Of a DNA stretch of 64,000 nucleotides, positions 1,218 through 29,603 are shown in pieces. Position 1 is the stretch's first letter. Each line of letters opens with the position of its first letter. Both the position numbers and the translations under genes were made by a program. Source of the stretch: Candidatus Coprovivens sp. (GTDB lineage Bacteria > Bacillota_I > Bacilli_A > RF39 > UBA660). Location: positions 64,001 through 128,000 of the forward strand of contig JBJFGS010000025.1 in NCBI GenBank assembly GCA_051892935.1, given 5' to 3'. The notes beneath the pieces were generated by a model. It did not search any database, was not told the DNA's origin, and saw nothing but the letters and a program-made list of their open reading frames with translations.

Positions 1218-1232
1218 GAAAATATAGTACAG

Positions 1233-1907: not shown

Positions 1908-1958
1908 TAGAGTAGTTGCATAAAAAAGAAAAATAATATAAGAAATTAAGGTGGTAAC

Positions 1959-4629: not shown

Positions 4630-4643
4630 AAGGAGTGAGTTAT

Positions 4644-6463: not shown

Positions 6464-6472
6464 GTGATCATA

Positions 6473-7408
6473 ATGAAAAATATTTTAAAAAGCATAATAT
6501 TTGTAACAATATTTATCCTAATCCTAGTAATTTTAACTTTTATACTATTGCCTAGTAAAGACATATTAGAATTTGGTGTATACAATATTTCAAAATATGA
6601 GATACTTGGTGAGAAAAGAGATACAATCGATGTCGTAGCAATAGGAGATAGTCTTGTATATAGTTCATTATCTCCTATGGAAATATGGAACGAATATGGA
6701 TATACAGCTTTTGATAGTGCCGAGCCAGCTCAAATAATAGAAAATACATACAAAAGTGTCGATATAGCTATAAAAAGTCAACATCCAAAAATAATACTAT
6801 TAGAAGCAAATGTAATTCTAAGAGATCCAAAAAATCAAAACAAATACACTAGACTATATAGAGAAAATAAAGACTTTAATCCATTAGGTCTACACCATAA
6901 TAACTGGAAAAACTATATTACATATGGAGATAAGTCAGAATGGATAAATGTGTACAAAGGTTTCAAATTCATTACCAAAATAGAGCCTTCAAAAAACAAA
7001 GCATATATGAAACCATCAAAAGAATTAAGAGTAATACCAAACAACAACCTAAAAGTATTCAATAAAATCGTATCACTATGTCAAAAAAACGATGTTAAGC
7101 TAGTTTTAATAAGCTTTCCAACTCAAACATCTTGGGGATACAAAAAACATAACACAATAGCTAAAATTGCCTCAGAAAACAATTTAGAATTTATTGATTT
7201 AAATCTAATAGATTTAGGAATTGATTGGCAAATAGATACTAAAGATAATGGTTCACATTTGAACTATCGCGGAGCTCTAAAAGCAACAAAATATATAGGA
7301 GAATACCTAAGCAAACTAGAAATGTTAGAAGATAAAAGAAAAAATCCAGAATACGAATCCTGGAATAAAGCTTATGAAAAATATATAAAAACGGAAGCAA
7401 TGGCATAG
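6473..7408 (+). CDS. Membrane-anchored SGNH/GDSL-type acyltransferase (DltD/PatB/AlgJ-like)
   Basis: N-terminal TM helix, IGDS nucleophile motif and DNGSHLN catalytic His motif. Confidence 0.85.
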   Translation: MKNILKSIIFVTIFILILVILTFILLPSKDILEFGVYNISKYEILGEKRDTIDVVAIGDSLVYSSLSPMEIWNEYGYTAFDSAEPAQIIENTYKSVDIAIKSQHPKIILLEANVILRDPKNQNKYTRLYRENKDFNPLGLHHNNWKNYITYGDKSEWINVYKGFKFITKIEPSKNKAYMKPSKELRVIPNNNLKVFNKIVSLCQKNDVKLVLISFPTQTSWGYKKHNTIAKIASENNLEFIDLNLIDLGIDWQIDTKDNGSHLNYRGALKATKYIGEYLSKLEMLEDKRKNPEYESWNKAYEKYIKTEAMA

Positions 7409-7731
7409 TCACCATCATGAGATATAGATAAAGAAATATTACTAAAATTGTAATCTTCTTTAATCTTACCTTGAAAGATAAAATAAGGTGCACCATTCAT
7501 ATTGTGACTTACTATAATATCCTTTAAGGAATAATCACTTATTCCTTTTTTTATTGCTTTTAAAAATGCCTCCTTAGCAGCATAAATACCAGCTATAGAA
7601 GCTAAAGAATAATCACACTTTTTCAAATAATATAATTCAATATCATTAAAATTATCATTTAAAAACTTATTATTCTTAGAAATACTTTTAAATCTATTAA
7701 TTTCAACTAAATCAATACCATTAGATATCAA
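7372..7731 (-). CDS. acpS: Holo-ACP synthase (4'-phosphopantetheinyl transferase)
   Basis: GIDLVEI, AAKEAFLKA, GAP and LSISHDGDYAIA. TTG start after GAGGTG; overlaps the 3' end of the SGNH gene by 37 bp. Confidence 0.93.
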   Translation of the reverse strand: MISNGIDLVEINRFKSISKNNKFLNDNFNDIELYYLKKCDYSLASIAGIYAAKEAFLKAIKKGISDYSLKDIIVSHNMNGAPYFIFQGKIKEDYNFSNISLSISHDGDYAIASVFIYFS

Positions 7732-7854
7732 TCTAACCACCTCAAATAAATAATAACACATTTATAATTAGAAAGGATAACTTAATATCAAAAATAAAAA
7801 ACATATTTATTGATAAGAAATAGTTTTTATATTATAATAAAAACAAGATAAAGG

Positions 7855-8769
7855 GTGATTATAATGATAAAAGCCATATGCTTAGGAAGAGTTACATATG
7901 ATATAAATTTAGTCGTAGACAAGTTACCATCAGATGGCTCCAAAAATGAGTTTTTTGAAAAAAACGGCAATGTTGGAGGAGAAGCAGCACTAGTATCATG
8001 TTGTTTTTCAAAATGGGGTATTAATACTACATTCGCCGGTGTATTAGGAAATGATGTTAACGGAACAAGAATTAGGAAAATATTTGATAAATTACACATT
8101 GATACAAGATACATAGAACCATCTTTTGATAACGATACACCTATGACAATAGTATTAATTAATAAAAGTACTCAAAACTACACTGTAATTAACATATCTG
8201 ATAAATACGTAGGATTAAAAAAATGTGATTTCGATTTTACACCTGATTTAATCTTCGTAGATGGATACGATGCAGTACAAGCTAAGAACTTATTAGAAAG
8301 ATACCCTAAAAGTCTTTCAGTAATCGATGCAAGCTTAGTAACTAGTTCAGTAATTGACTTAGTAAAAAAAGCCAAATACGCTGTATGTAGTAGAGAATTT
8401 GCCGAATCAGTATCCGGAGAAAAAATCGACTTTCAAGTGCCATCTAGTATCATTAAAGCATATCAAAAATTAAAAAAGAAATATCTAAATACAGAAATAA
8501 TAATAACGTTAGGTGAAAGAGGAGCCTTATATTGCATAAATAATCAAATAAAAATAACTCCATCATTAAAAGTTAAAGTTGAAGATACACATGGCTGTGG
8601 ACCTATTTTTAGAGCAGCCATTGCTCATACATTAATAGGTGGTGGAGATATCGAAAAAGCAGTGAAAATTGGTTGTATTGCAGGAAGCCTAGCTGCAACA
8701 AAAGTAGGTGCTCTAGATTCAATTCCTACGCTAGAAGAAATAAAAAATATATATGAGCAAAACTATTAA
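7855..8769 (+). CDS. PfkB/ribokinase-family protein, possibly catalytically degenerate
   Basis: GVLGNDVNG, TLGERGA and DTHGCGP (canonical motif is DTxGAGD). Confidence 0.85.
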   Translation: MIIMIKAICLGRVTYDINLVVDKLPSDGSKNEFFEKNGNVGGEAALVSCCFSKWGINTTFAGVLGNDVNGTRIRKIFDKLHIDTRYIEPSFDNDTPMTIVLINKSTQNYTVINISDKYVGLKKCDFDFTPDLIFVDGYDAVQAKNLLERYPKSLSVIDASLVTSSVIDLVKKAKYAVCSREFAESVSGEKIDFQVPSSIIKAYQKLKKKYLNTEIIITLGERGALYCINNQIKITPSLKVKVEDTHGCGPIFRAAIAHTLIGGGDIEKAVKIGCIAGSLAATKVGALDSIPTLEEIKNIYEQNY

Positions 8770-9022
8770 AGATCCATTTACTTATTTCTTTCCCCAACTT
8801 GATATACATGGAGAAACAACTTTAACATGTAATGCAGTAATAAATTCTTTTATAAAAGATAACATTAAATTAAAAAGAAAAAATATTATAATCATTCATG
8901 GCAAAGGAAGCGGAGCCTTAAGAAAAGCTACACATGAATATTTAAAGCACAACAAAAATGTAGAAAAGTATTATATTGATGGTCTTAATGATGGTCAAAC
9001 AATAGTTGAACTAAAATTATAG
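8753..9022 (+). CDS. Stand-alone Smr domain protein
   Basis: LDIHG, IIHGKGSGALR and NDGQTIVEL. Confidence 0.9.
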   Translation: MSKTIKDPFTYFFPQLDIHGETTLTCNAVINSFIKDNIKLKRKNIIIIHGKGSGALRKATHEYLKHNKNVEKYYIDGLNDGQTIVELKL

Positions 9023-9063
9023 ATAGTTTTTAAACAAAAACATTAAAAAATGTTTAAAAACTC

Positions 9064-9146
9064 TTGCAAAACATCCCCATAATTGCTATAATAATGCACA
9101 AACCATTGAAAATTGAGCACAAAAAGTGAGCAAAATTTGACGGTTT
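9064..9146 (+). promoter_or_regulatory. sigmaA promoter followed by a structured 5' leader hairpin (9100-9146)
   Basis: TTGCAA-17-TATAAT with TG extension, then AAACC-A-TTGAA-AA-TTG-AG-CAC-AAAAA-GTG-AG-CAA-AA-TTTGA-C-GGTTT. Confidence 0.65.
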
Positions 9147-9197
9147 TCTCTAGTAGTGTTAGAATTAAAGCACGAAAAGGAAATAGGGGGTATAATT

Positions 9198-9617
9198 ATG
9201 AAAGGATATGTTTTAGATTATATTAACGAAAATGAATTTAAAAAACTAGAAAGAGCATTAAAAAAATATAATATGCTAGCTTATAAAAAATTAAATTTTG
9301 AATATTATCCTGCATTAAGAAATGGTAAATTCGTTGGTAAAATGACTAGTCAAAATAAAAAAGCTGGTACTGAAACATACGAACTTAAATTACCAAGTGA
9401 TAACATGTTTACTCAAGTTCATGGTGACGTTAAATTAATATATACTGTATATGTAAAAGAACAAACAATTATGTTAAATACTATTACTCCATCTGATATA
9501 TTATTAGAAGGACACAAATCTGAATTAACAACATATAAAGGTATTATGATATCAAAACAAAACGCATCTAAAGATATGTTTAAAATAGACTTATTAAAAA
9601 TGTTACAAGACAAATAA
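9198..9617 (+). CDS. Hypothetical protein, possible RelE/ParE-like fold
   Basis: ATG after AGGGGG. Pattern YELKL...GDVKLIYTV...IMLNTI resembles RelE YRLRV-GDYRIIY-VLVL. Confidence 0.6.
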   Translation: MKGYVLDYINENEFKKLERALKKYNMLAYKKLNFEYYPALRNGKFVGKMTSQNKKAGTETYELKLPSDNMFTQVHGDVKLIYTVYVKEQTIMLNTITPSDILLEGHKSELTTYKGIMISKQNASKDMFKIDLLKMLQDK

Positions 9618-9639
9618 GAGTATAAAATACTCTTTTTTT
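9616..9639 (+). terminator. Intrinsic terminator
   Basis: AAGAGTA-TAAAA-TACTCTT followed by a T run. Confidence 0.7.
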
Positions 9640-9700
9640 ATGTCTAAATTTGCCAAAATAAACATAATATAATAAGATATAAAACCAAAGAAGGGGTAAT

Positions 9701-10312
9701 ATGATAAAAAAATATACATTAGAATCCTTAAATATCTATATATTAATACTTAGTTCAATAATATATATAATAGGTTTATTTACAATCGATTTATTTCCTA
9801 AAACAACCAAAGCATTAATAATAGTAGGTATATTAACAATGATAATCATATCATTATATTGTTATTTAAATAAGAAAAATACAATATATAATATCGGAAT
9901 ATTTCTAACATTACTATTAAATGTAGTAATAATATATAATATAATTAACTTAAATAATAGATACGATTACATAACAAATGTCATAACAAAAAAGTATGAA
10001 TATAAAGAATATGACATATATGTTCTTAAAAAAAATCCCAAATATAATGAACTAGAAAAACTAAATAACAAAACAATTGGTATATTAAATGAAAACAATG
10101 AAAACTTTTGCAATCAAATAAACAATGATATAGAAATAAAATGCTTATACTATAGTTCATTAGATGAAATAGAAGAATCAATTAAAACAGGAATAATCCA
10201 ATCTTTTGCACTATCAAAAGAAGAACAACTAATATTAAATCAAAGTAGCTTAGATATAAAAAAACAAAGTAGAATAATAAAAACTATCAAAATAAAAGAT
10301 TCTATTAATTAG
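9701..10312 (+). CDS. Three-TM membrane protein with an extracellular domain resembling the CpsA/Wzg accessory domain
   Basis: Three hydrophobic helices then YDIYVLK...LNNKTIGIL; paralogous to the C-terminal half of 11405..12433. Confidence 0.6.
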   Translation: MIKKYTLESLNIYILILSSIIYIIGLFTIDLFPKTTKALIIVGILTMIIISLYCYLNKKNTIYNIGIFLTLLLNVVIIYNIINLNNRYDYITNVITKKYEYKEYDIYVLKKNPKYNELEKLNNKTIGILNENNENFCNQINNDIEIKCLYYSSLDEIEESIKTGIIQSFALSKEEQLILNQSSLDIKKQSRIIKTIKIKDSIN

Positions 10313-10318
10313 AATCTT

Positions 10319-11305
10319 TTATCGTTTTAAATTCTTAACAGCTGTATCCAAATCGGTTATAGATAAATTAGCCATTAAATCAATATTATTATTTTTATAA
10401 GGTAAAGCACAAGATTCATATATAGAATATAAAGAATTATTAATAACCGTGGTTTGTTCAATCATATTAGGTGCTTCTATAGTAACATAATTTAAAGAAG
10501 GATCGTTATAATCCAAAATATTTTCATCATATTTATAAATTTGTAAAATAGAAGGCATATTTTTACCAAAAGAACGACTAAATATTATATAATCGAGACC
10601 ATCAACATTATAAATAGTAACACCTTGTACCTTATCAGGTATAGAAAATTTTCTAACATAACCAAGAGTTAAAACACGCGTATTCGAATCAATTGATATA
10701 TCATACTCCTTAATAAAACCCAAACCATTCAAACTAAAATTTCCCACAAATAAATGATTATTATATACAGATAAAAAAGAAATAGAATTTAAAAATGGAT
10801 TTCTATAATTAATCAATCCACTACCTACATCAACATCAGAGTATTTCGGGAAAACATTGGAATTATGTAATATAGAATCAAAATCAAAAGCACTAACACA
10901 GCCATCAAGAGAAGCAACCCACACCAAGTTATTTTCTTTATCATAAGATAAACCACCAACATGCGATTTATTATCCAAATAAGCAGTATTCACAATAGAA
11001 CCATCATTATTTAAAGTATATACGCAAGAATTACTATTTTTAGAATAATCATAAGAAGAAATCAAAAAATATTCGCCAGTATAACATAAACCTTGAGGAA
11101 CCATTTCATCAACAATCGGTATTTTAACATCAGACATTTGAATCAAACTATCTCCCTCTGCAATTGTTGAAGAAGAAACATCATAAAGTGCACATAATGA
11201 AAAATTAGAATTTAAAACATCAGTACCATAAGAAGAACAAACAATTGCTCCCGTAAGTAAACTTAAAAAAGCAACTTTATTTTTCATTTTCATAATAATC
11301 ACCAT
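10319..11305 (-). CDS. Secreted hypothetical protein, probable beta-propeller (YncE-like)
   Basis: Signal-like N-terminus; VPQGLC, SHVGGLSYD and KVQGVT blade-like motifs. Confidence 0.6.
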   Translation of the reverse strand: MVIIMKMKNKVAFLSLLTGAIVCSSYGTDVLNSNFSLCALYDVSSSTIAEGDSLIQMSDVKIPIVDEMVPQGLCYTGEYFLISSYDYSKNSNSCVYTLNNDGSIVNTAYLDNKSHVGGLSYDKENNLVWVASLDGCVSAFDFDSILHNSNVFPKYSDVDVGSGLINYRNPFLNSISFLSVYNNHLFVGNFSLNGLGFIKEYDISIDSNTRVLTLGYVRKFSIPDKVQGVTIYNVDGLDYIIFSRSFGKNMPSILQIYKYDENILDYNDPSLNYVTIEAPNMIEQTTVINNSLYSIYESCALPYKNNNIDLMANLSITDLDTAVKNLKR

Positions 11306-11404
11306 AGAAAAAGTATATCAAAAAAAATCACAAAAAACATTATTAGACCTTTTATTTTAAAAAAAATATGATATATTATTATTGTTAATTTGGAGTGATA
11401 AAAA

Positions 11405-12433
11405 ATGGTGAAAAAAAAGTCAAAAACACAAAAGTATAAGAAAAATCAAAAGAAAAAAATACAAAAAGTACAAACATCTAAGAAAAATAATCAAAATAAA
11501 ATACCAAAGGAAACAAAAAAACAAAATAGTAATCAACTAGTATCAAAAGAGAATGTAAAATACAATGTAGTTTTAAATAAAATAGTTCAAAATAATACAA
11601 AAAAACAGCAAAATAATCAAACAAATACAGAAAATAAAAAAACAAGCAATAATATAATATCTAAAATTAAAAACAAAATAACTATTCTTTGTAAAAAACA
11701 AGAAAAAAAGCAATCACCAAAATCATATAATTCAAAAAGAAAAAAAGTATCACATAAAATTGAAAAAGAAATTAAAAAGTCATTGCCTTCACTAAAAACA
11801 GAACAAGATCTAAAGAAAAAAAACATTTTCATTAGACTTTTTTACGAAATTAAAAATAACACACACATAATATTTAATACCATACTAATAATTACTTTCA
11901 TAACATTATTAATAGGGCTCATAAGAATTAATGTTTTTAAAACAGGTACTATAGTATATATAAGTTGTATAATAATCTTCCTAATGATTGTTGCAATATC
12001 ATACAATAAATACATAAGTGGAAAAATTTTTACTATTATAATAACAGCAGGAATGTTCGTTGGTATATACTACATGCAATATACATACGACTATATAAGA
12101 AATTTAAATTCTAATATATACGAATATAAAACATATTATGTTGTTGCATTCGACACAACAATAAATAGAAGCATATATACAATAAATAATAAAAAAGTAG
12201 GATTACTAAAAGAAAACTGCATTAATATTGAAAGAAAACTAAATACCAAGTTAGATAAAGTAAATTATATAGAATACGAAAATATAAACGATTTATTTGA
12301 AGATTTTTACAACAGTAAATTTAAAGCAATATTAGTTAATGAAAATCAATACAATTATTTAAAAAATAAAATAGAACCAAATAGTAGAGATATAAAAATA
12401 CTATACGAATTTAAAGTAAATGCTAAAAAGTAG
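11405..12433 (+). CDS. Membrane protein: K/Q/N-rich cytoplasmic tail, three TM helices, CpsA-accessory-like domain
   Basis: Low-complexity basic N-terminus; YEYKTYYVVA...INNKKVGLL paralogous to 9701..10312. Confidence 0.6.
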   Translation: MVKKKSKTQKYKKNQKKKIQKVQTSKKNNQNKIPKETKKQNSNQLVSKENVKYNVVLNKIVQNNTKKQQNNQTNTENKKTSNNIISKIKNKITILCKKQEKKQSPKSYNSKRKKVSHKIEKEIKKSLPSLKTEQDLKKKNIFIRLFYEIKNNTHIIFNTILIITFITLLIGLIRINVFKTGTIVYISCIIIFLMIVAISYNKYISGKIFTIIITAGMFVGIYYMQYTYDYIRNLNSNIYEYKTYYVVAFDTTINRSIYTINNKKVGLLKENCINIERKLNTKLDKVNYIEYENINDLFEDFYNSKFKAILVNENQYNYLKNKIEPNSRDIKILYEFKVNAKK

Positions 12434-12579
12434 TTTTTAAAAAACTACTTTTTTAAATACTTTACACATAATATAAATAAGCAACAAATAAATCGAACAA
12501 ATGATTGATTAAAAAGAAATACGAATTTATAATATATATAGAATAAAGGTAGAGTATTATTCTTAGAAAGAAGGTAAAT

Positions 12580-12681
12580 ATGAATAGTATAGAAGCATGG
12601 GAAATTTTTAAAAACACTGGAAATATAATCGATTATCTAGTATATATAAAAATTAAAAATTTTGAAATTAAAAAAAATTAA
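12580..12681 (+). CDS. YqzL-like small protein (33 aa, not in ORF track)
   Basis: MNSIEAWEIFKNTGNIIDYLVYIKIKNFEIKKN carries the W-x2-F-x2-TG-x3-DYL-x-Y pattern; RBS AAGAAGGT. Confidence 0.75.
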   Translation: MNSIEAWEIFKNTGNIIDYLVYIKIKNFEIKKN

Positions 12682-12728
12682 TATATTTAATTCAAAACTT
12701 CTGATATAATACAAAAGAAGGTGATAAA

Positions 12729-13307
12729 ATGAAAATAAAAAGAATAGTAGCTTATATAATAGATTTCTTCATCGTAAGTATTATATCATCATTGATATTC
12801 TGTTTACCATTTTTTAATAAATATAATAATGAATATCAAGAAATTACATCAGAATACCTAAAATTAATAGCTAATAGCGGCTCAGAAGAAATAGACTACG
12901 ATATAGAAAGTCAACTATTATACGATATGAGTAAATCCAGTCAACCACTATCAATAATCAATTGTGGAACGATAATACTATATTTTGGAATACTTTCATT
13001 CATATTAAATGGACAAACGCTTGGTAAAAAGATAATGAAAATAAAAGTAGCACCATTAGAAGGAAATAAGCTTAATCCCAATTTATATATGATAAGAGAA
13101 ATAATTGTAACGAATCTTATTCCCAAAATATTATCCATAATAGCATTAGCGTTCTTAAGTAAATCAAACTGGTTAATAGCTCAAAATATTATAGGATACT
13201 TGTCAAACATAACTCTTTTCCTAATTATTGGCTTTATGATCTTTAGAGATGATGAAAGAGGATTACACGACATCATATGTAAAACAAACGTTATCGAAGT
13301 AAAATAA
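12729..13307 (+). CDS. RDD family membrane protein
   Basis: KRIVAYIID, GQTLGKKIMKIKV and RGLHDIICKT. Confidence 0.93.
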   Translation: MKIKRIVAYIIDFFIVSIISSLIFCLPFFNKYNNEYQEITSEYLKLIANSGSEEIDYDIESQLLYDMSKSSQPLSIINCGTIILYFGILSFILNGQTLGKKIMKIKVAPLEGNKLNPNLYMIREIIVTNLIPKILSIIALAFLSKSNWLIAQNIIGYLSNITLFLIIGFMIFRDDERGLHDIICKTNVIEVK

Positions 13308-13331
13308 AACTACAAAAATAGTTTTATTTTT
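13300..13331. repeat. 32-bp target-site duplication, left copy (right copy at 13524-13555); contains the RDD stop codon and terminator hairpin
   Basis: TAAAATAAAACTACAAAAATAGTTTTATTTTT is identical at both positions. Confidence 0.9.
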
Positions 13332-13523
13332 CAGAGTGTTGACAAACTACTTATCTCAAAAAATTAGAAAATTTAGTTTTGTAATAGTGGGAGTAGTTTA
13401 TCAAATTTAGAGTAATTTTAGGTTTTAAGAGTCTAAAAATTGCTCTTTTTATATATTAAAGTGGGGATTATAAAAAGCCGTATGACAAAGCCGGTTTTAA
13501 ATACCGACTTTGTCAACGGCCTG
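13332..13523. mobile_element. 192-bp non-autonomous MITE with IS1182/IS5-like ends
   Basis: Terminal inverted repeats CAGAGTGTTGACAAA / CAGGCCGTTGACAAA (12 of 15 match), long flanking duplication, no transposase ORF. Confidence 0.85.
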
Positions 13524-13620
13524 TAAAATAAAACTACAAAAATAGTTTTATTTTTTTTTAAAAGTTTCTTTTCATAAACAAACATTTATATTATAATAAA
13601 AAAGAATAGGAGTATACTTT

Positions 13621-14940
13621 ATGGAAATCAAAAGAAATAAAAACTTCATAAATACATATGAAAACGAAATCAAACCATATAGAGAAAAGTATTACAAAGA
13701 CATTCTAAAATATTCAAAAGATGAAAAAAAATACCCAATCATTTCAATATATTTAATACCAATAATAACTTCAATAGTTACATTGCTAATTACAAATTTT
13801 AATATAACGGGATATATAATTTCATTCATAGAAATATTCATAATAAACTATTTAATAAAAATAGTTTTAAAATATCTAAAAATAGAACAAAATAATGAAT
13901 ATTTAGAAATCTTAAAGAAAAAAGGCTATTACTCGATTGAAGACTATGAAAAAAAACTAAAAAGTATAATAACTGGACCAAATGGATATTATCAAAAGTT
14001 GTTAAATGAATTAATAGAAAAATATAAAATAAATGAAACAACAAGAAAAGTTACAACAACATCAGGAGAAGAATACTATTATTGGACAAATACAAATCGC
14101 GATAAAATAATGCTACTAAATACAAAATATAATAAAAAACCAGAAATAAAAGCAATACATATATCTAACATAAGATATTATCGAATAGACAATGAAAAAA
14201 AATCTATTATAATAAATACATCAACAGAAATATATTCATTTAAAATAGAAAGCTCAAAAATATTCAACGAAATAATAAAAGAGAAAAAACTAGAAAATAT
14301 TACAGCTTTTAATCCAGCAACATATATAGATGATTTTGAAATATATATGCATAGTATAAAAAGCGAAGATAATAAAAAAAATCTCGAAAATTCACAAAGA
14401 ATAACTAAAAGCGTTAATTACATTATAATATTTTCAATAATCTATTTAATAATAAGTTTATTAATATTTATATTAAAAAAATATCTTTTATTATTAAATA
14501 TACTAAATGTGATAAGTATATGTATAATAAGTATAAACCTACAAATAGCGCTATCCACTAATAGAAAATACAATAAAACAGATACAGAATACATAAAAGA
14601 ATTAAACACAAATCCAGAATGTATAACTAGATTTGAAGAATTGAAATATGTTTTGGGAATAAAACCAACATATGACAACGTATACACCCCAGAAGGAGTA
14701 GAATATAAAACATGGCTAGCAAATGGATATTTTCACGTTTTCTTAAACTTAATATATTTTAATACAGTATATATGTCAGTTAAAATATCGGATGTAGCAT
14801 ATTATAAAAAAGAAGATAATGAATGTATTGTAAAATTAAAAGATAAAACCTTAGTATTTACAAGTGATTCCGAAGAGGTTTTTAGAAAAATACTACCAAA
14901 TAAAGATTATTATTGGTTAAAAGGTTATCAAAAAAAATAA
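13621..14940 (+). CDS. Membrane protein with an internally duplicated [2 TM + beta-rich domain] unit
   Basis: GEEYYYW...IHISNIRYY...IFNEIIKEK versus GVEYKTW...VKISDVAYY...VFRKILPNK. Confidence 0.65.
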   Translation: MEIKRNKNFINTYENEIKPYREKYYKDILKYSKDEKKYPIISIYLIPIITSIVTLLITNFNITGYIISFIEIFIINYLIKIVLKYLKIEQNNEYLEILKKKGYYSIEDYEKKLKSIITGPNGYYQKLLNELIEKYKINETTRKVTTTSGEEYYYWTNTNRDKIMLLNTKYNKKPEIKAIHISNIRYYRIDNEKKSIIINTSTEIYSFKIESSKIFNEIIKEKKLENITAFNPATYIDDFEIYMHSIKSEDNKKNLENSQRITKSVNYIIIFSIIYLIISLLIFILKKYLLLLNILNVISICIISINLQIALSTNRKYNKTDTEYIKELNTNPECITRFEELKYVLGIKPTYDNVYTPEGVEYKTWLANGYFHVFLNLIYFNTVYMSVKISDVAYYKKEDNECIVKLKDKTLVFTSDSEEVFRKILPNKDYYWLKGYQKK

Positions 14941-20283: not shown

Positions 20284-21130
20284 CTAATTAGAGGATTGTA
20301 ACCTGTAATTCACGGGAGACAGTCCTTTTAATTTTACTTTAATTCTATCGTAATTATAATAATAAATATAGTCATCAATCGCTTTTATCAAATCATCTAA
20401 TGTTTTATAATTATCCTCTTGGTCATAAAACATTTCTGTTTTAAGTATACCAAAGAAATTTTCCATCATTCCATTATCCATACTATTTCCTTTTCTAGAC
20501 ATACTTTGTTTTATACCATTATTTTTTAATCTTTGCTGATAAGATTGATGTTGATATTGCCATCCTTGATCTGAATGAAATATTAATCCTTCTAAATTAT
20601 TATTTTTATTAAATGCTTTATTTAGCATATCATTAATTTGTTCTAAGTTTGGTGATTTAGAAGTATTATAAGAAATTACTTCGCCATTATATCCATCTAA
20701 TATTGGTGATAAATAACATTTTTCACCACGAAGATTAAATTCAGTAACATCTGTATACCATTTTTCATTTGGTTTGTCTGCATAAAAATTTCTATCGATT
20801 AAATTATCGGTAATTTTACCTATAGTTCCTTTATATGATGAATATTTTCTTTTATTTCTTTTTAACGGTTTTAAACCTAATTTAACCATTATTCTATAGA
20901 CTTTTTTATGGTTAACATTATAACCTTAATTTCTTAATTCTAATGTGATTCTACGATAACCATATCTTTCTTTATTATTAATAAATATTTCCTTTATTTT
21001 ATCATTATTTCCTTATTTTTATCATCTTTATCTATTTTAGATAAAGTATAATAATATACTGATTTAGCTAAACCAGATATTTTCAGAAGAATCACTAATG
21101 GATATATTAGCCGAAGTTCACTTACAACAT
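20284..21130 (-). pseudogene. IS3 OrfB transposase, disrupted
   Basis: WYTDVTE, HSDQGWQY and ENFFGILKTE are intact. The upstream YGYRRIT segment is cut off by an in-frame TAA (20928-20926) and a frameshift near 21003. Confidence 0.85.
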
Positions 21131-21637
21131 TTACTTTTTCTTCTGTTGTTGATTCTTCCTTGCTTGAACAACGGCTCTCAATTTTTTTGAGTATTCTAGC
21201 TCCGCTTTTAAATATAAATTTTCTTCTTCCAATCTTTTTATTTTTTCTTTATCTGTTTCATTTTCTTTTTTCTTTGTTACTTTAGGCATAGTTGACCGTC
21301 CTCGCTTTCGTTCAACTATATTATAACCATTTTCTATATAATTTTTAATCCAATTTTGTAACATTCCATAACTTAGTAAACTCATATCCAAAGCAACAGA
21401 CCATACGGCCTCACCATTAATTAAAACTCTATCAATAGCTTCTTGTTTTTCGAATCTTGTATGATTTTTATTTTTACCAGCTCTTAAAATATCTATTCCG
21501 TGTTTATCAATTAGTGCAATTAGATAATTTATTAGACATTTTCTAACTTTATACTTATTTGATAAACTGCATATGGACATTCCATTCTTTTTATCATTAT
21601 ACAAATTTATTTTATCTTCATAAGTTAATTTTGACAT
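21131..21637 (-). CDS. IS3/IS150 OrfA (HTH protein)
   Basis: Two HTH-like segments, LEEENLYLKAELEYSKKL, A-rich slippery 3' end. Confidence 0.9.
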   Translation of the reverse strand: MSKLTYEDKINLYNDKKNGMSICSLSNKYKVRKCLINYLIALIDKHGIDILRAGKNKNHTRFEKQEAIDRVLINGEAVWSVALDMSLLSYGMLQNWIKNYIENGYNIVERKRGRSTMPKVTKKKENETDKEKIKRLEEENLYLKAELEYSKKLRAVVQARKNQQQKKK

Positions 21638-22659: not shown

Positions 22660-22830
22660 TTAATAATATATTAACATTCCAAAAATAGATATCAAAGAAC
22701 CTAAAATCATAACAAGAGCCATAATCCAACCAACAATTTTCATTACTAATTTTCTTTTTTGATTGGCAGTCATTTTTTTCTTTTTAGGTTTAATTTTTTC
22801 TTCGACTTCATCTTTAATTTTTTTTGCCAT
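22660..22830 (-). CDS. Small tail-anchored membrane protein (56 aa, DUF4044/Prli42-like; not in ORF track)
   Basis: MAKKIKDEVEEKIKPKKKKMTANQKRKLVMKIVGWIMALVMILGSLISIFGMLIYY; RBS GAGGTG; followed by hairpin AAGAGCAAT-G-ATTGCTCTT and a T run. Confidence 0.75.
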   Translation of the reverse strand: MAKKIKDEVEEKIKPKKKKMTANQKRKLVMKIVGWIMALVMILGSLISIFGMLIYY

Positions 22831-22905
22831 TTAAAATCACCTCTAACTATATAAACTAAATATAATTTATCATATTTTTCACCTTAAGTAAATAAATTTA
22901 ATCAG

Positions 22906-23481
22906 GTGAAAAATATGATAAGAATAATATCGAAGTATAAAAATATCTATATATTTCTAATAACACTAGCTATAATCGGTGCAATAAGTGGTTATCTATA
23001 TTATCAGATTCAACCAACTAAAACTAAAGAAGAAATAAAAACAAACGTCAACATCAAAGAAAGCATAAATTCAAGAGTAAATAACTTATCTAAAAACTTA
23101 AAAAATAATATAAAAATATTCTTTTATTCACTATTAATAATACCTATAATAATAAATATCTTTAATATATTTTATAAGCCTTTCGAAATAGGTTTTATTT
23201 TTAATTTATTATCAAAATATAATATTAAACTATCATTAATATATACAAACATATACTTAAATATTCCTTTTATAATAAGTATCATCCTAACTAGAATAAG
23301 TATAACTTTCATATATAATATAATAAAATACATTATAATAAGAGATAATAAATCAAAAGTATTAATAAAAAATACATTTAAAAAATACATTATAATAATA
23401 ATTATTTCAATACTATACGATATATTAATTATCATCACTAGTCCTTATATAAACAGATATTTAATGACATTTATTAAATAA
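22906..23481 (+). CDS. SpoIIM-like membrane protein
   Basis: Multi-TM topology with IIGAISGYLYY, FEIGF and NIPF pattern; sigmaE-like TCATATT upstream. Confidence 0.5.
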   Translation: MKNMIRIISKYKNIYIFLITLAIIGAISGYLYYQIQPTKTKEEIKTNVNIKESINSRVNNLSKNLKNNIKIFFYSLLIIPIIINIFNIFYKPFEIGFIFNLLSKYNIKLSLIYTNIYLNIPFIISIILTRISITFIYNIIKYIIIRDNKSKVLIKNTFKKYIIIIIISILYDILIIITSPYINRYLMTFIK

Positions 23482-23512
23482 TAATGTTATAATTAATAAT
23501 AGAGGTGATGAT

Positions 23513-25180
23513 ATGGAAGCACTAGCTATCAGCGCAGCAAATTTAAATACCATAGAAGAAAACTTAGGAGCAGTTGCCAAAGAATTATCTGGAGTCATAA
23601 ATAATGTTTCAACAGTAAATGATCAAGTAAATAAAGTAGAATCAAAAGTAGAAACACTTAATGACGAAGTAAAAAGCCTAGTTAAAGAAATAAGAGAAAC
23701 TACTATAATAACAAACGCTCGTCAATCTATTATGTATAACAACTCAGAAATAGAAAAAAAATATGGATACTACGATAAAGTAAGAAGAACAACTGAATCC
23801 CTATTAGATGCTATTGAAAACTCATCAATAAGAAAAAATTCTCTTCAAGAACTAAATCAAGAAATTATTTTAAATAATCCAAATTACTGGTTATCTTCTG
23901 CTTTAGCTGCATTATCATCATGGTTATTAAACGATCGTACAAATACCGAAAAAGAATTAAATAACGCATTAAAAAAAGATAATAAAAAAACAAGTCTTTT
24001 CTTCTGTTTGATAAATTTAAAATTACAAAGAACTCAAACATCTTTAAATTGGTTAAATAAATATCTATCTCTTCAAAATCCAACTAAATTAGATAAAGAT
24101 TTTATAACTATCCTTGATTTAATTGCAACAGGTACTTTTGGTGATGAAGCCAAAAATACAGTATTAAAAAAAATAAATTTCTGGTTTAATAGTCTTAACT
24201 CTGAAAAAGAAATACAAAACGAACAAAAAAGCATATGGAGCAATTTTTTAAAAACAAAACAAGATACCGATATAAGAATGCCAAATTTAGAAAACTATTC
24301 CCCAGATGTATTCAAACTAAAAAACAACTTAGCAATAACATCAACTTATATAAATGTCCTTAATCATTTAGAAAACATTATAAAAAGCGACACATCAAAT
24401 AAAGGAATAAACGAAATAATAAATAATTTAATATACGAATACGAATCAAATGAACAAATATATCAAAAAGACAATTTAAAAAATAATCTTATTATAGAAT
24501 GTAATGGTAATAGAGAAGAAGCCGAAAAACTATTTAAAAAACAAGAAAGTATTTATAACAATGAAACCAATCTTCTAACCCTTTTAAGCAACATTATAAT
24601 ATATAAAAATTCATACAGTATTAGTAATGAAACACAAAAAATAGCTTTATCACTAATGAAAGAATACATCCAAAACGCTATTGAAGAAATGAATGAAGAA
24701 ATAAGTAAAGATAACATCAATATATCAATAGACAAATTTAAAACAACAACCAAAGATGGAAGTAATTTAAAAGAAGCAAAACAAGACTTAGAAGCTTATC
24801 TAAGTACGATATTTAATGAAGAAGATAAAGATTTAATAATTACTCTTTTAATAATAAATATTCTAGGAATAATAGGAATATTCATAACTTTAAACAGCAA
24901 AATTCTTTGTACATTATTAATAATAATAATTCTATTAGGAAATTTCATTTTACTATTTAAATTAAATCAAAGAAATAGGCTAAGAACAAGAGAAAAAAAT
25001 AAATTGAGAATCAATATAGGAAATATCCTTGAAAGAGTCTTAGCAGAAACAACAGATTACAACAACTTAATGTTAGAAGACAACGAACATTATATAGAAT
25101 TAAAAACATATCTAAACAATCTAGAAGCTGAAAACTACACAAAAAGTAACGACGAAAGAAATATTAATATAGGAGAATAA
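23513..25180 (+). CDS. Hypothetical protein: N-terminal coiled coil, helical-repeat core, two C-terminal TM helices (gene 1 of AAA operon)
   Basis: Heptad pattern over the first ~65 aa; YGYYDKVRR, PNYWLSSALAAL and KTSLFFCLI; paired hydrophobic helices near the C-terminus. Confidence 0.8.
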   Translation: MEALAISAANLNTIEENLGAVAKELSGVINNVSTVNDQVNKVESKVETLNDEVKSLVKEIRETTIITNARQSIMYNNSEIEKKYGYYDKVRRTTESLLDAIENSSIRKNSLQELNQEIILNNPNYWLSSALAALSSWLLNDRTNTEKELNNALKKDNKKTSLFFCLINLKLQRTQTSLNWLNKYLSLQNPTKLDKDFITILDLIATGTFGDEAKNTVLKKINFWFNSLNSEKEIQNEQKSIWSNFLKTKQDTDIRMPNLENYSPDVFKLKNNLAITSTYINVLNHLENIIKSDTSNKGINEIINNLIYEYESNEQIYQKDNLKNNLIIECNGNREEAEKLFKKQESIYNNETNLLTLLSNIIIYKNSYSISNETQKIALSLMKEYIQNAIEEMNEEISKDNINISIDKFKTTTKDGSNLKEAKQDLEAYLSTIFNEEDKDLIITLLIINILGIIGIFITLNSKILCTLLIIIILLGNFILLFKLNQRNRLRTREKNKLRINIGNILERVLAETTDYNNLMLEDNEHYIELKTYLNNLEAENYTKSNDERNINIGE

Positions 25181-25182
25181 CT

Positions 25183-25359
25183 ATGAACGAAGAACAATTT
25201 AAAAAACTAGATATAGGCAATGAAATAAAAATAAAACCAGCTATTATTAATCTTCCAGAAAAAAAAGATAAAGATAATAAAAATGATGAAAAAATAATAG
25301 TCGAACTTCCAACATGGAACATAGAACCACCTATAGAAATAAAAAGAGGCGAACAATGA
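25183..25359 (+). CDS. 58-aa peptide with C-terminal LPxWxIEPP motif (gene 2; not in ORF track)
   Basis: RBS AGGAG; starts 2 bp after the upstream stop and has an ATGA overlap downstream. MNEEQFKKLDIGNEIKIKPAIINLPEKKDKDNKNDEKIIVELPTWNIEPPIEIKRGEQ. Confidence 0.85.
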   Translation: MNEEQFKKLDIGNEIKIKPAIINLPEKKDKDNKNDEKIIVELPTWNIEPPIEIKRGEQ

Positions 25360-25790
25360 CATACGAAGAATGGTTAAATACAATTGAAGAATTAAAACAC
25401 CCAAACCTAAGCATAGATAATCTAAATAAAATAAAAAACACCTCCTTAAATGAAAATATTAATCCTTTATTAATTCCTAAAATAGAAAATTTAGTTAAAG
25501 AAAGATTAAACAACAGCATAAATAAAATAATTTTAAATCTTAGTGAAATATTTAGCGATATAAACTACTTAGATCTAACACTACTAAATTTTAAAAAAGA
25601 AATAAACTATATATTAGAGATAATCTCTATAAAACAATTACCAGAAGAAAAACAAAAAGAATTAAAAGACATGATAAAAGCCGAAAGTAATAATGTAATA
25701 GAAATTCTAAATAAAGAAGCACAAAAGCTTGATTACACAGGTTCCTTATCATCAATAATAAATAACTATAGAATAAAATGGAGTGAATAA
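25356..25790 (+). CDS. Hypothetical helical protein (gene 3)
   Basis: Starts MTYEEWL at the ATGA overlap; 144 aa, amphipathic helical pattern. Confidence 0.8.
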   Translation: MTYEEWLNTIEELKHPNLSIDNLNKIKNTSLNENINPLLIPKIENLVKERLNNSINKIILNLSEIFSDINYLDLTLLNFKKEINYILEIISIKQLPEEKQKELKDMIKAESNNVIEILNKEAQKLDYTGSLSSIINNYRIKWSE

Positions 25791-25791
25791 A

Positions 25792-27288
25792 ATGAATTAC
25801 AATGAAGCAAAAGAATACTTAAAAAGATATTTAAAAGCAAGAATACCAGTTATTATAATTAATACAGCAGAAAAAAATCGTTCATTAAGATTAATTAAAG
25901 AAATTGCCAATGAAGCAAATATGAATTTTAATTTATATCAAATGTCTCAAGGAATATCTGATTTAAAAACAAATACAATAAAAAGCGAAGATAAAACAAT
26001 AATGAGTGCCATTGATTACATTGTAAACGAAATAAGACACCAAGAAAATAGTAATTTTATCATAAGTGATATATCAGATATATACGAATCAACCACCATT
26101 TCAAGGTACCTTGTAGATGTAATAGAAAAAGCAGAAACCATGTCTGGAGTAATAGTTTTAGTTACAAACGAACCAATTTGGTCAAATATTCAAAGATTAG
26201 GAATAACAATCAAACTAAACTACCCTACAGAATCAGAATTAAAAGAAACAATAATGAACACTATTTCTCCTTATAAAAACCAAATTGAAATAGAATGGGA
26301 TGAAATAGACTATGTAAATGCTGCAACATATCTTCAAGGATTAAGTGAAATGGAAGTAAAAAATATTATCTCATCATTAATTGTAAAAGGTTCAATAAAA
26401 AAAGAAGATTTAAAAGAACTAAAATATGCAAAACAAACTTTATTTAATGAAATAGCAGGGTTAGAAGCTATTGAAGTAGATGATGACTTTCAAATAGCTG
26501 GACTAGATAATTTAAAAGAATGGTTATATGAAAAGAAAACTTTAATGGATCCAGCAAAAAAAGAAGAGCTATCAAAAAGAGGAATTGCTGCTCCTCGAGG
26601 AATTCTACTAACTGGAGTACCAGGTTGCGGAAAAAGTCTTTGTTCAAAAGCAACAGCAAGTATCTTTAATATTCCCTTATATAGACTTGATTTAGCAACT
26701 GTTCAAGGTCAATACGTTGGTCAATCAGAAAAACAACTCAAAGAAGCTCTAGATACAGCAGAATACGTTTCCCCTTGTGTTCTTTGGATTGATGAAATAG
26801 AAAAAGGATTAAACGATTCAAATTCTAGTGTTACATCAAAAATGATTGGCCAATTCCTATTTTGGTTACAAGAATGTGAAAAGCCCGTATTCGTAATAGC
26901 ATCAGCTAATAGCGTTGAATCACTACCACCAGAACTAATAAGAAAAGGACGTTTTGATGAAATATTCTTCGTTGATTTACCAAACGCATCCGAAAGAAAA
27001 CAACTACTAAAATTATATTCAAATAAATATTTAAAAGTAGAAATAAGTGAAGAACTAAAAAACAAACTAGTCTCAATAACCGAAGGATTCGCAAGCGCTG
27101 ATATTGAGGCAACAATTCGTAATATAGCATATAAATTAATTGCCAATAAAGATATCGAATTAACAGAAAGACTTATAATAGAAGAATTATCAAAAGTAGT
27201 ATCACTATCCAAAACAAATCCAGAAAAAATAGAAAAAATACGAAAATGGGGACAAGAAAGAGCAACCAAAGCATCAAAAGATATATAG
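25792..27288 (+). CDS. Ycf46-like AAA+ ATPase (gene 4)
   Basis: ARIPVI N-terminus, GLDNLKEWL, Walker A GVPGCGKS, pore loop YVG, Walker B LWIDEIEKG, LPPELIRKGRFDE and IRKWG tail. Confidence 0.92.
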   Translation: MNYNEAKEYLKRYLKARIPVIIINTAEKNRSLRLIKEIANEANMNFNLYQMSQGISDLKTNTIKSEDKTIMSAIDYIVNEIRHQENSNFIISDISDIYESTTISRYLVDVIEKAETMSGVIVLVTNEPIWSNIQRLGITIKLNYPTESELKETIMNTISPYKNQIEIEWDEIDYVNAATYLQGLSEMEVKNIISSLIVKGSIKKEDLKELKYAKQTLFNEIAGLEAIEVDDDFQIAGLDNLKEWLYEKKTLMDPAKKEELSKRGIAAPRGILLTGVPGCGKSLCSKATASIFNIPLYRLDLATVQGQYVGQSEKQLKEALDTAEYVSPCVLWIDEIEKGLNDSNSSVTSKMIGQFLFWLQECEKPVFVIASANSVESLPPELIRKGRFDEIFFVDLPNASERKQLLKLYSNKYLKVEISEELKNKLVSITEGFASADIEATIRNIAYKLIANKDIELTERLIIEELSKVVSLSKTNPEKIEKIRKWGQERATKASKDI

Positions 27289-27296
27289 GTGATAAA

Positions 27297-28124
27297 ATGA
27301 AAGAAAAAAAAGACATCAAATATCTTGTCAAAAGTAACAATTACATAGGACTATTATTCTTCGCGCTAGTACTAGCATCACTATTATATATATTAAAAAA
27401 AGAAGAAACAACATTTCAAAACATCGAACCAACTATGAATGAAATAACAAACTTACAAGAACAACCTAAAGAAATAACAGAGCCAACAAAAGAAATATCA
27501 GATCTCCAAAACTATCTAAATACCGGAGATCCAAACACATTTAATATATATCAATCACATTATATATTAAATGAAAAAATAACAAAAGATAACCTTAATA
27601 ACGAAACTCTTCTATATATGGCATATAAATATATAGAAAAAACAACCGACTTCACAAACTATATAAACTACCTGGGTTGTGATGAAGCTCAAATCATAGG
27701 ACTAGATAATCAAATAACACAATGTGGTGGAACCAAAATAAATGCTACTACTTATACGATGAACAGATATATTACAAAAGAATTATTAAATAAAACAATC
27801 AAAAAAATATTTAACATAAATCTAACTCAATATACAAACTTTTATACAAGTGAAGATAATCTATGTTACTATTTAAAAGACGAATTTTTATGTGTTTCCC
27901 ATCAAACAAATAAAATAACAAATTATGGCGAAAAAGAATTTCAAAAAGCATACAAATATAATAATAAAATAGAAATTATAGAAAAATATCATTTCATAAA
28001 TAATGGAATATATTACAAAGGTTTTAATAGCCAAGAAATAGGTGAAGGATATTATAAAAGTACCTTCAATAAAATAAATGGTTCATATTACTGGGAAAGC
28101 ACAGAGTATTACGAAATAAACTAG
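27297..28124 (+). CDS. Membrane-anchored extracellular hypothetical protein
   Basis: N-terminal TM helix; C-terminal YKSTF...YYWEST resembles 54206..54973. Confidence 0.7.
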   Translation: MKEKKDIKYLVKSNNYIGLLFFALVLASLLYILKKEETTFQNIEPTMNEITNLQEQPKEITEPTKEISDLQNYLNTGDPNTFNIYQSHYILNEKITKDNLNNETLLYMAYKYIEKTTDFTNYINYLGCDEAQIIGLDNQITQCGGTKINATTYTMNRYITKELLNKTIKKIFNINLTQYTNFYTSEDNLCYYLKDEFLCVSHQTNKITNYGEKEFQKAYKYNNKIEIIEKYHFINNGIYYKGFNSQEIGEGYYKSTFNKINGSYYWESTEYYEIN

Positions 28125-28143
28125 TTATTTTAACTAGTTTTTT

Positions 28144-28184
28144 CTTGATATTTCCTTGACATATCAAGTGTCTAGCAATATAAT
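28144..28184 (+). promoter_or_regulatory. Consensus sigmaA promoter with an overlapping inverted repeat (candidate operator)
   Basis: TTGACA(28156)-17-TATAAT(28179); CTTGATAT-N9-ATATCAAG straddles the -35. Confidence 0.75.
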
Positions 28185-28220
28185 TAAGATGTAAAATATA
28201 AAAGAAAGGAATTGGTAAAA

Positions 28221-28988
28221 ATGCGTAAATTAAATGAATTATTTCAAGAATTAGGAATATCTAAAGTAAGATTAGCAAAATATTTAGGAGTTTCAAGACA
28301 AATGGTCTATAACTATCTAGAACTAAATGATATAAATAAATGGCCAAAAGAAAAAAAATTATTACTATTTAAATTATTAGATATAAATGATAGTAACGCA
28401 ATAGAAGATATTCAAGTAACAACAGACTACTTAATGAATGTTGAAAGTAGATTAAATCAAGGAGTAAAAAGTACGGCTGAAATGGATAATGGTTTAAACT
28501 TCAAAGGTTTAAATAAAGAATCACAAGTACTCCTAAGCGATATAACTTATCTTCTAAAAGAAAAATTAAGTGATGAGACAAAAGAAGAAAACTACTATGC
28601 TATTTTATATCTATATCATCTACTACAATCTTTAGATAATGTTCCAGAAATTAAATATATATTTGGTTATATGAGTAAAACAACAGGATTTACCAATCCA
28701 GAAGAATATAAATTTCAAGAAGATAAACAATTTATTTTTGAAGGTATCCTATACTCAGCTTTAACATTATACAACAACGGAGGAGCATCTCGTTCTAAGT
28801 TAGCCGAATCACATAAACGTTTTGTACAAGAAATAGAACAAAAAAATGAAGAAAAACTTTCTCGTACACAACAACTAAATACAATAAAAATTCAAGCACT
28901 TAAAGAACTAGGATTCACAGAAATAAACGAAAGCAATGCTGCCGAAGTATTTGAAAAAATAGCAGAAATTCAATCAAGAAAGGTTTAG
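28221..28988 (+). CDS. XRE-family HTH transcriptional regulator
   Basis: LGISKVRLAKYLGVSRQMVYNY. Confidence 0.85.
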   Translation: MRKLNELFQELGISKVRLAKYLGVSRQMVYNYLELNDINKWPKEKKLLLFKLLDINDSNAIEDIQVTTDYLMNVESRLNQGVKSTAEMDNGLNFKGLNKESQVLLSDITYLLKEKLSDETKEENYYAILYLYHLLQSLDNVPEIKYIFGYMSKTTGFTNPEEYKFQEDKQFIFEGILYSALTLYNNGGASRSKLAESHKRFVQEIEQKNEEKLSRTQQLNTIKIQALKELGFTEINESNAAEVFEKIAEIQSRKV

Positions 28989-29021
28989 CAATAAACCTTT
29001 TTTATAATAAAAGGAGTATAT

Positions 29022-29603
29022 ATGAAAAAGAAAATAATAATATTATCTAGCTTACTATTATTAATTAGTGGATGTAAAGAAAAAGAAATAGAATGTGAAG
29101 AGCAAAAAGAAGAAACACTAATAAAATATAATAATACAAAAATAACCGAAAAAGATGCTCTAGAAGAAACAAAAGAATATATCTTTCCAGTTATATTTGA
29201 AAAAGTAATAGGAGATATTTTAACAGAAGAAATGAAGGATAAACTCGAAGATGGAAATAACTACGCAGAAGAAACAATAGAAGAACTAAAAACTTACTAT
29301 GAAGATGAACTTGAAAAAGCAATAATATCCTATACATCATATAAAACAATAGAAGAATATAAAAGATCAATTTTAATAAGTTATTTACAAGAAGAATATT
29401 TTAAAGAATATATTAGCAATAAAGAAAAAATAGATTACAACGAAATTACCGATGATAATTTAACTAATTATTATAAAAAATATTATGTTGAGAGTATAAA
29501 CGACTTATTAAAAAAATATAATGTAACATTCGAAAATAAAGATTATAAAAAGATGTATGAAAAATATATAGAAGAAAAAGAAACTTACTATAATAATAAC
29601 TAA
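29022..29603 (+). CDS. Lipoprotein, PrsA-like chaperone scaffold without a parvulin domain
   Basis: Lipobox LISGC; ITEKD..., TIEEYK..I..YLQ and LLKKYNVTFENKDYK resemble the PrsA N- and C-terminal regions. Confidence 0.6.
   Translation: MKKKIIILSSLLLLISGCKEKEIECEEQKEETLIKYNNTKITEKDALEETKEYIFPVIFEKVIGDILTEEMKDKLEDGNNYAEETIEELKTYYEDELEKAIISYTSYKTIEEYKRSILISYLQEEYFKEYISNKEKIDYNEITDDNLTNYYKKYYVESINDLLKKYNVTFENKDYKKMYEKYIEEKETYYNNN

Follow-up and report, generated by a model that had tools for sequence, protein, structure and literature searches.

The window analyzed here, a 64,000-nucleotide stretch of DNA from Candidatus Coprovivens sp. (contig JBJFGS010000025.1, positions 64,001 to 128,000), carries a cassette of four co-directional genes, g1 to g4, encoding a putative membrane scaffold, a micro-protein, a helical-bundle protein, and an AAA+ ATPase. 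The cassette spans 23513–27288, with successive junctions of 2 bp, an ATGA overlap, and 1 bp (Table 1). The four genes and their junctions, as described in an earlier note on this DNA, were confirmed in their coordinates, and an in-frame GTG was found upstream of the g4 start, at 25783. The source genome is a 1.8 Mb assembly, 92% complete, with a guanine–cytosine (GC) content of roughly 25%, and near-identical DNA was found mainly in pig-gut and faecal metagenomes. A reading under genetic code 4, in which TGA encodes tryptophan, was dropped because TGG encodes tryptophan throughout and long open reading frames (ORFs) are open under table 11. The cassette is tentatively interpreted below as a membrane-tethered AAA+ protein-remodelling module.

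Table 1. Features of the cassette in the window, with examples of a fifth gene, g0, from other loci (L numbers denote loci of the compared set)
Feature	Location	Strand	Remarks
Promoter-like site ATGACA-18-TATAAT with TG	23464-23493	+	Consensus match, 11/12 positions
Extended -10 TGTTATAAT	23485-23493	+	Part of the promoter-like site
g1	23513-25180	+	555 aa; putative membrane-anchored scaffold
g1 membrane hairpin (predicted)	24827-24967	+	Model helices 439-458 and 463 onward; loop of about 3-4 residues; basic stretch after it
g2	25183-25359	+	58-aa micro-protein ending LPTWNIEPPIEIKRGEQ; GGAG 7 nt before ATG
LPTWNIEPP	25306-25332	+	Window copy of the family motif [FL]P-x-W-[DN]-[LIV]-x-P
g3	25356-25790	+	144-aa helical-bundle protein; ATG overlaps the g2 stop (ATGA)
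g4	25792-27288	+	498-aa classical-clade AAA+ ATPase; 1 bp past the g3 stop
Walker A GVPGCGKS	26614-26637	+	g4 residues 275-282
Pore loop QYVG	26710-26721	+	g4 residues 307-310; Y308 and G310 invariant
Walker B VLWIDE	g4 residues 330-335	+	Motif match
Arginine-finger motif RKGRFD	g4 residues 384-389	+	Motif match
g0 examples	L013:4452-4958, L065:4505-4984, L077:9103-9585		Absent from the window

The cassette was compared across 85 loci, consisting of 80 from a pattern scan of a one-genome-per-species collection, four from the order of the window's organism, and the window itself. The scan was seeded by a 12-sequence g1 alignment, and the 80 loci were drawn from at least 473 stretches of the collection in which g1 was confirmed. 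The carriers were Moraxella, Acinetobacter, Achromobacter, Stenotrophomonas, Cupriavidus, Variovorax, Comamonas, Desulfovibrio, Komagataeibacter, Paenibacillus, Clostridium, Streptococcus oralis, S. mitis and S. infantis, Lachnospiraceae, Verrucomicrobia, Acidobacteria, and relatives of Armatimonadota. The ATPase gene was located downstream of g1 in 81 of the 85 loci, and the other four (L024, L058, L059, and L081) end at a contig edge. A relative of g3, recognized by position and a common N-terminal motif, lay between g1 and g4 in 81/81 loci; when the divergent g3 of the window was used as a phmmer query, only 34 of the 85 loci were found. An overlap between the g2 stop and the g3 start was seen in 67 of 81 loci; its length was 4 nt in 54 of them, 1 nt in 12, and 8 nt in the remaining one. 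Thus, when the co-occurrence check proposed in the earlier note was carried out, the ATPase was present in every untruncated locus (81/81) and the peptide in 82/82.

The 58-aa product of g2 had been noticed as a hidden peptide, and the sequence comparison indicates that it is a real gene. A six-frame scan of the neighbourhoods, as had been suggested, was made with two patterns. The strict pattern, [LFIVM]P.W[ND][LIVM].PP, occurred a single time in the six frames of the window and once in each of four order relatives of 12–13 kb, in each case located between g1 and g3. The looser pattern, P.W[DNSE][LIVMF].P, occurred 85 times in the 943,163 bases × 6 frames of the 85 loci, and 82 of these occurrences fell in an ORF beginning directly behind g1 and extending to the g3 start. 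Given the single strict match in the window and the 82/85 looser matches at the expected place, the placement of the motif is far beyond chance. The three loci without the motif (L024, L059, and L081) stop at or just after g1; therefore, the motif was present in all 82 informative loci. It was kept across Bacillota, Pseudomonadota, Verrucomicrobiota, Acidobacteriota, and Armatimonadota. The GC content of the loci ranges from 24 to 69%, and each of the four proline codons is found at the invariant prolines; selection therefore acts at the protein level.

The g2 proteins consist of a variable, acidic or disordered N-terminal part and a conserved C-terminal motif. The tail, [FL]P-x-W-[DN]-[LIV]-x-P...[RK]R, hereafter the W-P tail, is the sole conserved part, and M1, P43, W45, and P49 are invariant across 51 sequences. 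The motif lies 8–13 residues before the C-terminus in all cases but one, where the distance is 36, and is followed by a hydrophobic pair and Arg/Lys residues. In Pseudomonadota, the tail takes the form FP-x-WDLLP-xxx-F[VI]RR[VI]K, lacking the second proline, while most other loci have WD[LI]-x-PP-xxx-V[RK]R; of all copies, that in the window, LPTWNIEPPIEIKRGEQ, diverges most. At the very end, the residues differ among members (K, R, L, I, Q, and G), and no Pfam family matched g2. Lengths of g2 lie between 43 and 394 aa, and N-terminal zinc ribbons are present in some forms from Lachnospiraceae. Long forms of up to 394 aa (L071:6738-7331, L086:6741-7925, L063:6759-7133, and others) contain zinc ribbons and low-complexity repeats and carry the W-P tail at the very end. 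A complex prediction of the peptide with g1 residues 103–438, g4 residues 1–235, and g3 gave interaction scores (ipSAE) of 0.08 and 0.09 against a mark of 0.32 and, being made without controls, carries no weight either way.

The structural model of g1 is all-helical (predicted local distance difference test, pLDDT, 86.4), with a helix at residues 11–102, a helical-repeat domain resembling tetratricopeptide repeats (TPR) at 108–395, and a small hairpin. These are followed by two hydrophobic helices, which form the two-helix membrane hairpin of the model, and by a helix that extends to residue 535, in agreement with the two transmembrane helices described earlier. In the sequence, hydrophobic runs are followed by a strongly basic stretch, KLNQRNRLRTREKNKLR. 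Since the basic stretch comes after the hairpin, the positive-inside rule would place both ends of g1 in the cytoplasm, with almost nothing exposed outside. The earlier suggestion of a secretion role is therefore left without support, as the hairpin would expose only about three residues. Fold matches of a TPR-like kind were obtained for residues of about 84–200 (Z 8–9.4, Foldseek E ≥ 0.04); these were weak, and they include peptide-binding TPRs.

By sequence, g1 belongs to a large family. A word-indexed search yielded 316 relatives, the best 120 of which are all 548–559 aa long, and an exhaustive HMMER search (E ≤ 0.001) gave 607 clusters at 50% identity. Of these, 215 reached E ≤ 1e-30, with lengths almost always of 550–590 aa, and the family as a whole keeps a constant length of about 560–580 aa. 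No Pfam TPR match was present in g1 of the window or its relatives, and no Pfam family matched any of the 43 members scanned. Likewise, g1 gave no NCBIfam or PADLOC match and no convincing solved-structure relative in a profile search. Searches of the ESM Atlas returned only unnamed clusters.

The product of g3, for which a 144-aa helical protein had been anticipated, was modelled confidently as an all-helical bundle (pLDDT 92.2). Only generic helical matches were obtained in fold and profile searches, with no specific fold relative, and no Pfam family matched. In three loci, g3 has a hydrophobic segment of its own, which argues for action at the membrane. These belong to a variant found in Desulfovibrio, Thiobacillus, and Comamonadaceae (L025:3946-5034, L027:6926-8107, and L028:2781-3932), in which g3 reaches 362–393 aa with the hydrophobic segment and a C-terminal extension, and an extra ORF lies between g3 and the ATPase gene. 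Fused forms of g3 were absent among proteins of 369–2000 aa, which is weak evidence. Positions 97–140 of the g3 profile (about 25620–25750 in the window; consensus SLEDSAK-DR-G-L) matched residues 116–159 of annexin A8 over 44 residues with an E-value of 3e-4; this is probably a spurious, chance likeness between helix-loop-helix elements.

The active AAA domain of g4 begins at about residue 235 and matched PF00004 with 104.9 bits, compared with a cut-off of 21.2. The motifs of the classical clade, namely Walker A and B, the pore loop, sensor 1, and the arginine fingers, are intact, and they include the YVG pore loop pointed out in the earlier note. Identity to the window copy is 41–55% across phyla, and the mean column identity is 69% (51 sequences). 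The family phrog_8638 matched g4 over its full length (9e-90). The closest solved relatives, VAT (9.5e-54) and p97, match the active domain only. The N-domain (residues 1–230) contains no nucleotide motifs. When its profile was aligned with that of the active domain using hhalign, a weak match was obtained (probability 8%, E 0.004, 86 columns), with the columns in register over the sensor-1, arginine-finger, and lid regions. The N-domain is plausibly a degenerate AAA module; as to the degenerate N-terminal module proposed earlier, the absence of nucleotide motifs was borne out, while its AAA ancestry depends on this weak alignment.

The cassette was then compared with known AAA+ systems. The Ycf46-type label, applied here to ATPases that combine an inactive AAA module with a classical one, is a presumptive one for g4. 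Similar to Ycf46-type sets, g4 has a motif-free N-domain before one active classical AAA domain and is encoded with a membrane anchor and small partners bearing conserved termini. However, g2 and g3 of the window match neither DUF1257 (Ycf35) nor DUF2997, the small partners in those sets, and thus the partner set differs: here it comprises g1, the W-P tail peptide, the helical bundle, and usually a Cys/His protein, g0, described below. Cdc48, p97, and VAT include the best solved relatives of the g4 active domain and share its pore loop and arginine fingers. Unlike them, g4 has a single active ring, no CDC48_N match, and an N-domain without Walker A or B, and the model TIGR01243 scored 116.8 bits on g4 against a cut-off of 802.65.

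Two further comparisons concern machines acting at membranes. In Vps4/CdvC with ESCRT-III, as in the cassette, a partner protein that is encoded next to a classical AAA+ motor acting at a membrane ends in a short proline-containing motif. The motif of g2 differs from both MIM1 and MIM2. In addition, g4 lacks an MIT domain, the CdvC model NF041006 reached only 88.7 bits on g4 against a cut-off of 650, and no window protein matched Snf7 at E ≤ 1. NSF/alpha-SNAP/SNARE resembles the cassette in having an AAA+ protein of two modules, one of them inactive, together with a helical-repeat adaptor and long-helix proteins anchored in the membrane, and the likeness of the g3 bundle to Habc-type bundles of syntaxin is of a generic helical-bundle kind (Z about 10). 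As no sequence relationship exists and the fold scores are within helical-bundle noise, this comparison is an analogy only.

An envelope-stress or membrane-repair system of the PspA/ESCRT-III kind, in which g1 or g3 would be a divergent remodelling polymer recycled by the ATPase, was considered as an alternative. The long helices and the membrane hairpin of g1 would suit such a role. Furthermore, Ravi et al. 2024 (PMC11237479) describe PspA and membrane-anchored Snf7 homologues beside an ATPase with two AAA+ domains, the N-terminal one inactive, and this type of ATPase in such company counts for the alternative. However, neither PspA_IM30 nor Snf7 was matched by the window proteins (E ≤ 1) or by any of 43 g1 relatives (43/43, E ≤ 0.01), and no ESCRT-III structure was present among the listed fold matches of g1 and g3, with the caveat that helical folds score poorly and unspecifically. 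We consider this alternative improbable.

A fifth gene, g0, accompanies the cassette in 77 of the 85 loci. It encodes a protein of about 160 aa with invariant Cys, His, His, Glu, and Asp residues, which might be an enzyme, and it precedes g1 in 58 loci and follows g4 in 18 (Streptococcus and Lachnospiraceae). No relative of g0 was found in Pfam, NCBIfam, PADLOC, or the Protein Data Bank (PDB). It is absent from the window, from four order-level relatives, and from the entire 92%-complete genome.

The termini of the cassette proteins were also compared. Both g0 and many g2 proteins start with M-x-R-x-I-L. At the other end, a tail of the Arg-Arg-x-Val-Leu type was counted as [RK][RK].[VIL][LIVMF] within the last 10 residues, using distinct tails from outside the window's clade. 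It was present in 40 of 59 g3 tails and 46 of 55 g4 tails, compared with 2 of 162 flanking control ORFs, and a looser version ends g1 in 37 of 63 cases, compared with 7 of 162 controls. The shared terminal peptides suggest a common receptor. In the window, g3 (25740–25790) and g4 (27240–27288) end without such tails. The window's clade thus carries a reduced cassette, without g0 and with the g3 and g4 tails lost.

The combination of a disordered g2 of about 60 aa encoded beside an unfoldase with the invariant Cys, His, His, Glu, and Asp of g0 could indicate a covalent tag or degradation signal resembling Pup or ubiquitin, which would be attached or cut by g0 and read by the ATPase. Unlike Pup in the Pup–Mpa system, however, the C-termini of g2 vary, with no conserved Gly-Gly-Gln/Glu end and thus no conserved residue for conjugation. 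In addition, no ligase-like gene was found, the window cassette and its 92%-complete genome lack g0, and the Pup-ATPase model TIGR03689 scored 51.2 bits on g4 against a cut-off of 504.75. A tagging role is therefore regarded as highly improbable. The role of adaptor or substrate tag put forward in the earlier note, likened there to MIM2 or Pup, is a conjectural analogy, given that no MIT domain is present and that g2 has no conserved last residue as Pup does.

Whether the cassette serves in anti-phage defence or another conflict, with the ATPase and adaptors sensing or being triggered by an invader and g1 as the effector, for example by disturbing the membrane, was weighed from its distribution and neighbours. 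The distribution is sparse and patchy: of 201 genomes from the window's order, 5 contained full-length g1, as did 6 of the 400 genomes in a wider sample, and the source genome of the window is counted in both figures. Four plasmid records carry g1, namely two small Komagataeibacter plasmids, a 643-kb Comamonas replicon, and a chromosome-sized Fusobacterium record. On one Komagataeibacter plasmid, of 26 kb, g1 lies directly beside an IS3 transposase and a recombinase; behind it come ORFs of 61 and 186 aa and an AAA family ATPase. In the window, an IS3-type transposase lies 2–3 kb upstream of the cassette, and a single IMG/VR contig holds the complete cassette close to serine recombinases. The IS3 neighbours and this contig count for a conflict role; that the contig was the only one of 2.9 million viral contigs, within the reach of the scan, to contain a relative speaks against it. 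The IS3-type element of the window consists of two minus-strand ORFs about 240 nt apart, 20284–20889 (rve integrase core, only 201 aa) and 21131–21637 (a 168-aa upstream ORF), and may be degraded.

Carriage by the Streptococcus satellite phage Javan368 was examined and rejected. The cassette is located in the last 5.4 kb of its record (L093, MK448457.1), at 8844–14257. This part shows 93–99% identity to nine loci on chromosomes of S. oralis, S. mitis, and S. infantis, none of which matched the satellite's own genes (214–8843 of the record). Because this part matches strains without satellite genes at the site, the record runs on into the chromosome, and the satellite-phage link, which would have favoured defence, is an artefact of the record boundary. 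In two of these strains, a 213-bp copy of the left end of the record directly precedes the cassette, in the manner of an attachment-site repeat.

Housekeeping genes predominate in the flanks of 30 diverse loci (AcrB, isocitrate dehydrogenase, pyruvate formate-lyase, and ribosomal protein S4), which counts against defence. Nevertheless, strong PADLOC matches (PDC-S08, PD-Lambda-1, and type IV restriction) were found within 5 kb in 4 of the 30, besides a weaker HerA-like match. In three Lachnospiraceae-type loci, a HerA-like ATPase of about 900 aa lies directly upstream of g1 (L063:2297-4999, L076:2313-4991, and L084:2300-4963), and in one a SUKH ORF lies between g4 and g0; both observations lend some weight to defence. 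In L063 and L076, two further ORFs separate g4 from g0, of which L076:10070-10483 matches SUKH/SMI1, while its counterpart in L063 had no Pfam match.

Regarding the cassette itself, PADLOC models of IetA matched g4 (2.6e-27), as in the IetAS system. However, the match covers only the generic AAA core (residues 255–490), no IetS-like protease adjoins, and the NCBIfam IteA model scored 69.2 bits on g4 against a cut-off of 510. The sole peptidases among the scanned neighbours are an M28 peptidase on the opposite strand, about 0.8 kb upstream and beyond the ORF at 22906–23481, and a U32 peptidase about 4.4 kb upstream. The proteins g0 to g3, from the window and three other lineages, matched no PADLOC model, the cassette contains no nuclease, toxin, or protease domain, and the conservation of the ATPase greatly exceeds what immune genes usually show. 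Taken with the mostly housekeeping flanks, this makes defence the less likely explanation in our judgement, although a serious rival given the points in its favour.

Building on the established anatomy, co-occurrence, coupling, and motif, the four genes are read as one membrane-tethered AAA+ protein-remodelling module, a reading to which we assign a chance somewhat short of even. Here, g1 would serve as anchor and platform, held in the inner membrane by its short helical hairpin with nearly all of its mass in the cytoplasm as a long helical stalk and a TPR-like repeat domain. The g2 tail would be a short linear docking motif and g3 a co-translated adaptor, the two linking the ATPase hexamer to g1 at the cytoplasmic face of the membrane. 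The hexameric unfoldase g4 would then unfold, extract, or disassemble a membrane-associated client, possibly assemblies of g1, with a logic akin to NSF/SNAP/SNARE or Vps4/ESCRT-III. Its task would be an accessory one in the upkeep of membranes or proteins, and not an immune one. The conservation of g4 (41–55%), the mostly housekeeping flanks, and the peptide-binding TPRs among the weak fold matches of g1 were counted in favour of this reading, and a membrane-anchored AAA+ machine without a nuclease or toxin domain, as first envisaged, fits the data.

Several points weigh against the remodelling module. All contacts among the cassette proteins, as well as the client, are inferred. The TPR-like resemblance of g1 (Z up to 9.4) falls short of what would be decisive for helical repeats, and profile searches with the g4 N-domain yielded no solved relative. 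The sparse distribution (5/201 and 6/400) would be equally expected of a defence or conflict system, and two small plasmids and one mobile-element contig carry the cassette. Moreover, the holders of near-identical DNA are gut, faeces, and digester metagenome DNA, with no RNA datasets among them.

The features adjoining the cassette add little to its interpretation. The extended -10, TGTTATAAT, behind which the earlier note had placed the four genes, is part of the second-best promoter-like site within 22700–29200. However, 40 promoter-like sites were observed in this region of 23% GC compared with 45 expected from shuffles; thus, the sequence exists as described, and the site is of little weight because such sites are no more common than in shuffled DNA. 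No terminator-like site was seen 3' of g4. An ORF for a single-pass membrane protein (27298–28124, + strand) begins 10 nt past the ATPase stop, with no terminator between it and g4; it had no family match and is not kept beside the cassette in relatives.

The earlier note had also asked whether the cluster might be an already characterized system, and no match to one was found in Pfam, NCBIfam, PADLOC, or the literature. Full-text literature searches returned no description of the cassette, although Text S2.2 and Table S3 of PMC11237479 may list the neighbourhood. In RefSeq, four of the five cassette proteins are annotated only as "hypothetical protein", and, judged by sequence searches, no described family exists for any of the three partner proteins g1, g2, and g3.

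The g1 family is present in Streptococcus oralis and S. mitis, Acinetobacter, Stenotrophomonas, Achromobacter, Clostridium, and Paenibacillus, among others. In our view, the g2 tail is among the clearer short linear motifs in bacteria, and g2 is an example of a conserved gene of fewer than 60 codons that is dropped by default ORF calling. The tail could reveal by what means the ATPases of a large orphan AAA+ branch locate their partners at the membrane. A bolder proposal, which we hold to be doubtful at present, is that the cassette represents a widespread, unnamed five-part bacterial machine whose parts recognize one another through the W-P tail and the Arg-Arg-x-Val-Leu ends. If true, it would be a new class of membrane AAA+ system with its own docking code, of the rank of Vps4/ESCRT-III or Pup/Mpa and a variant of neither.

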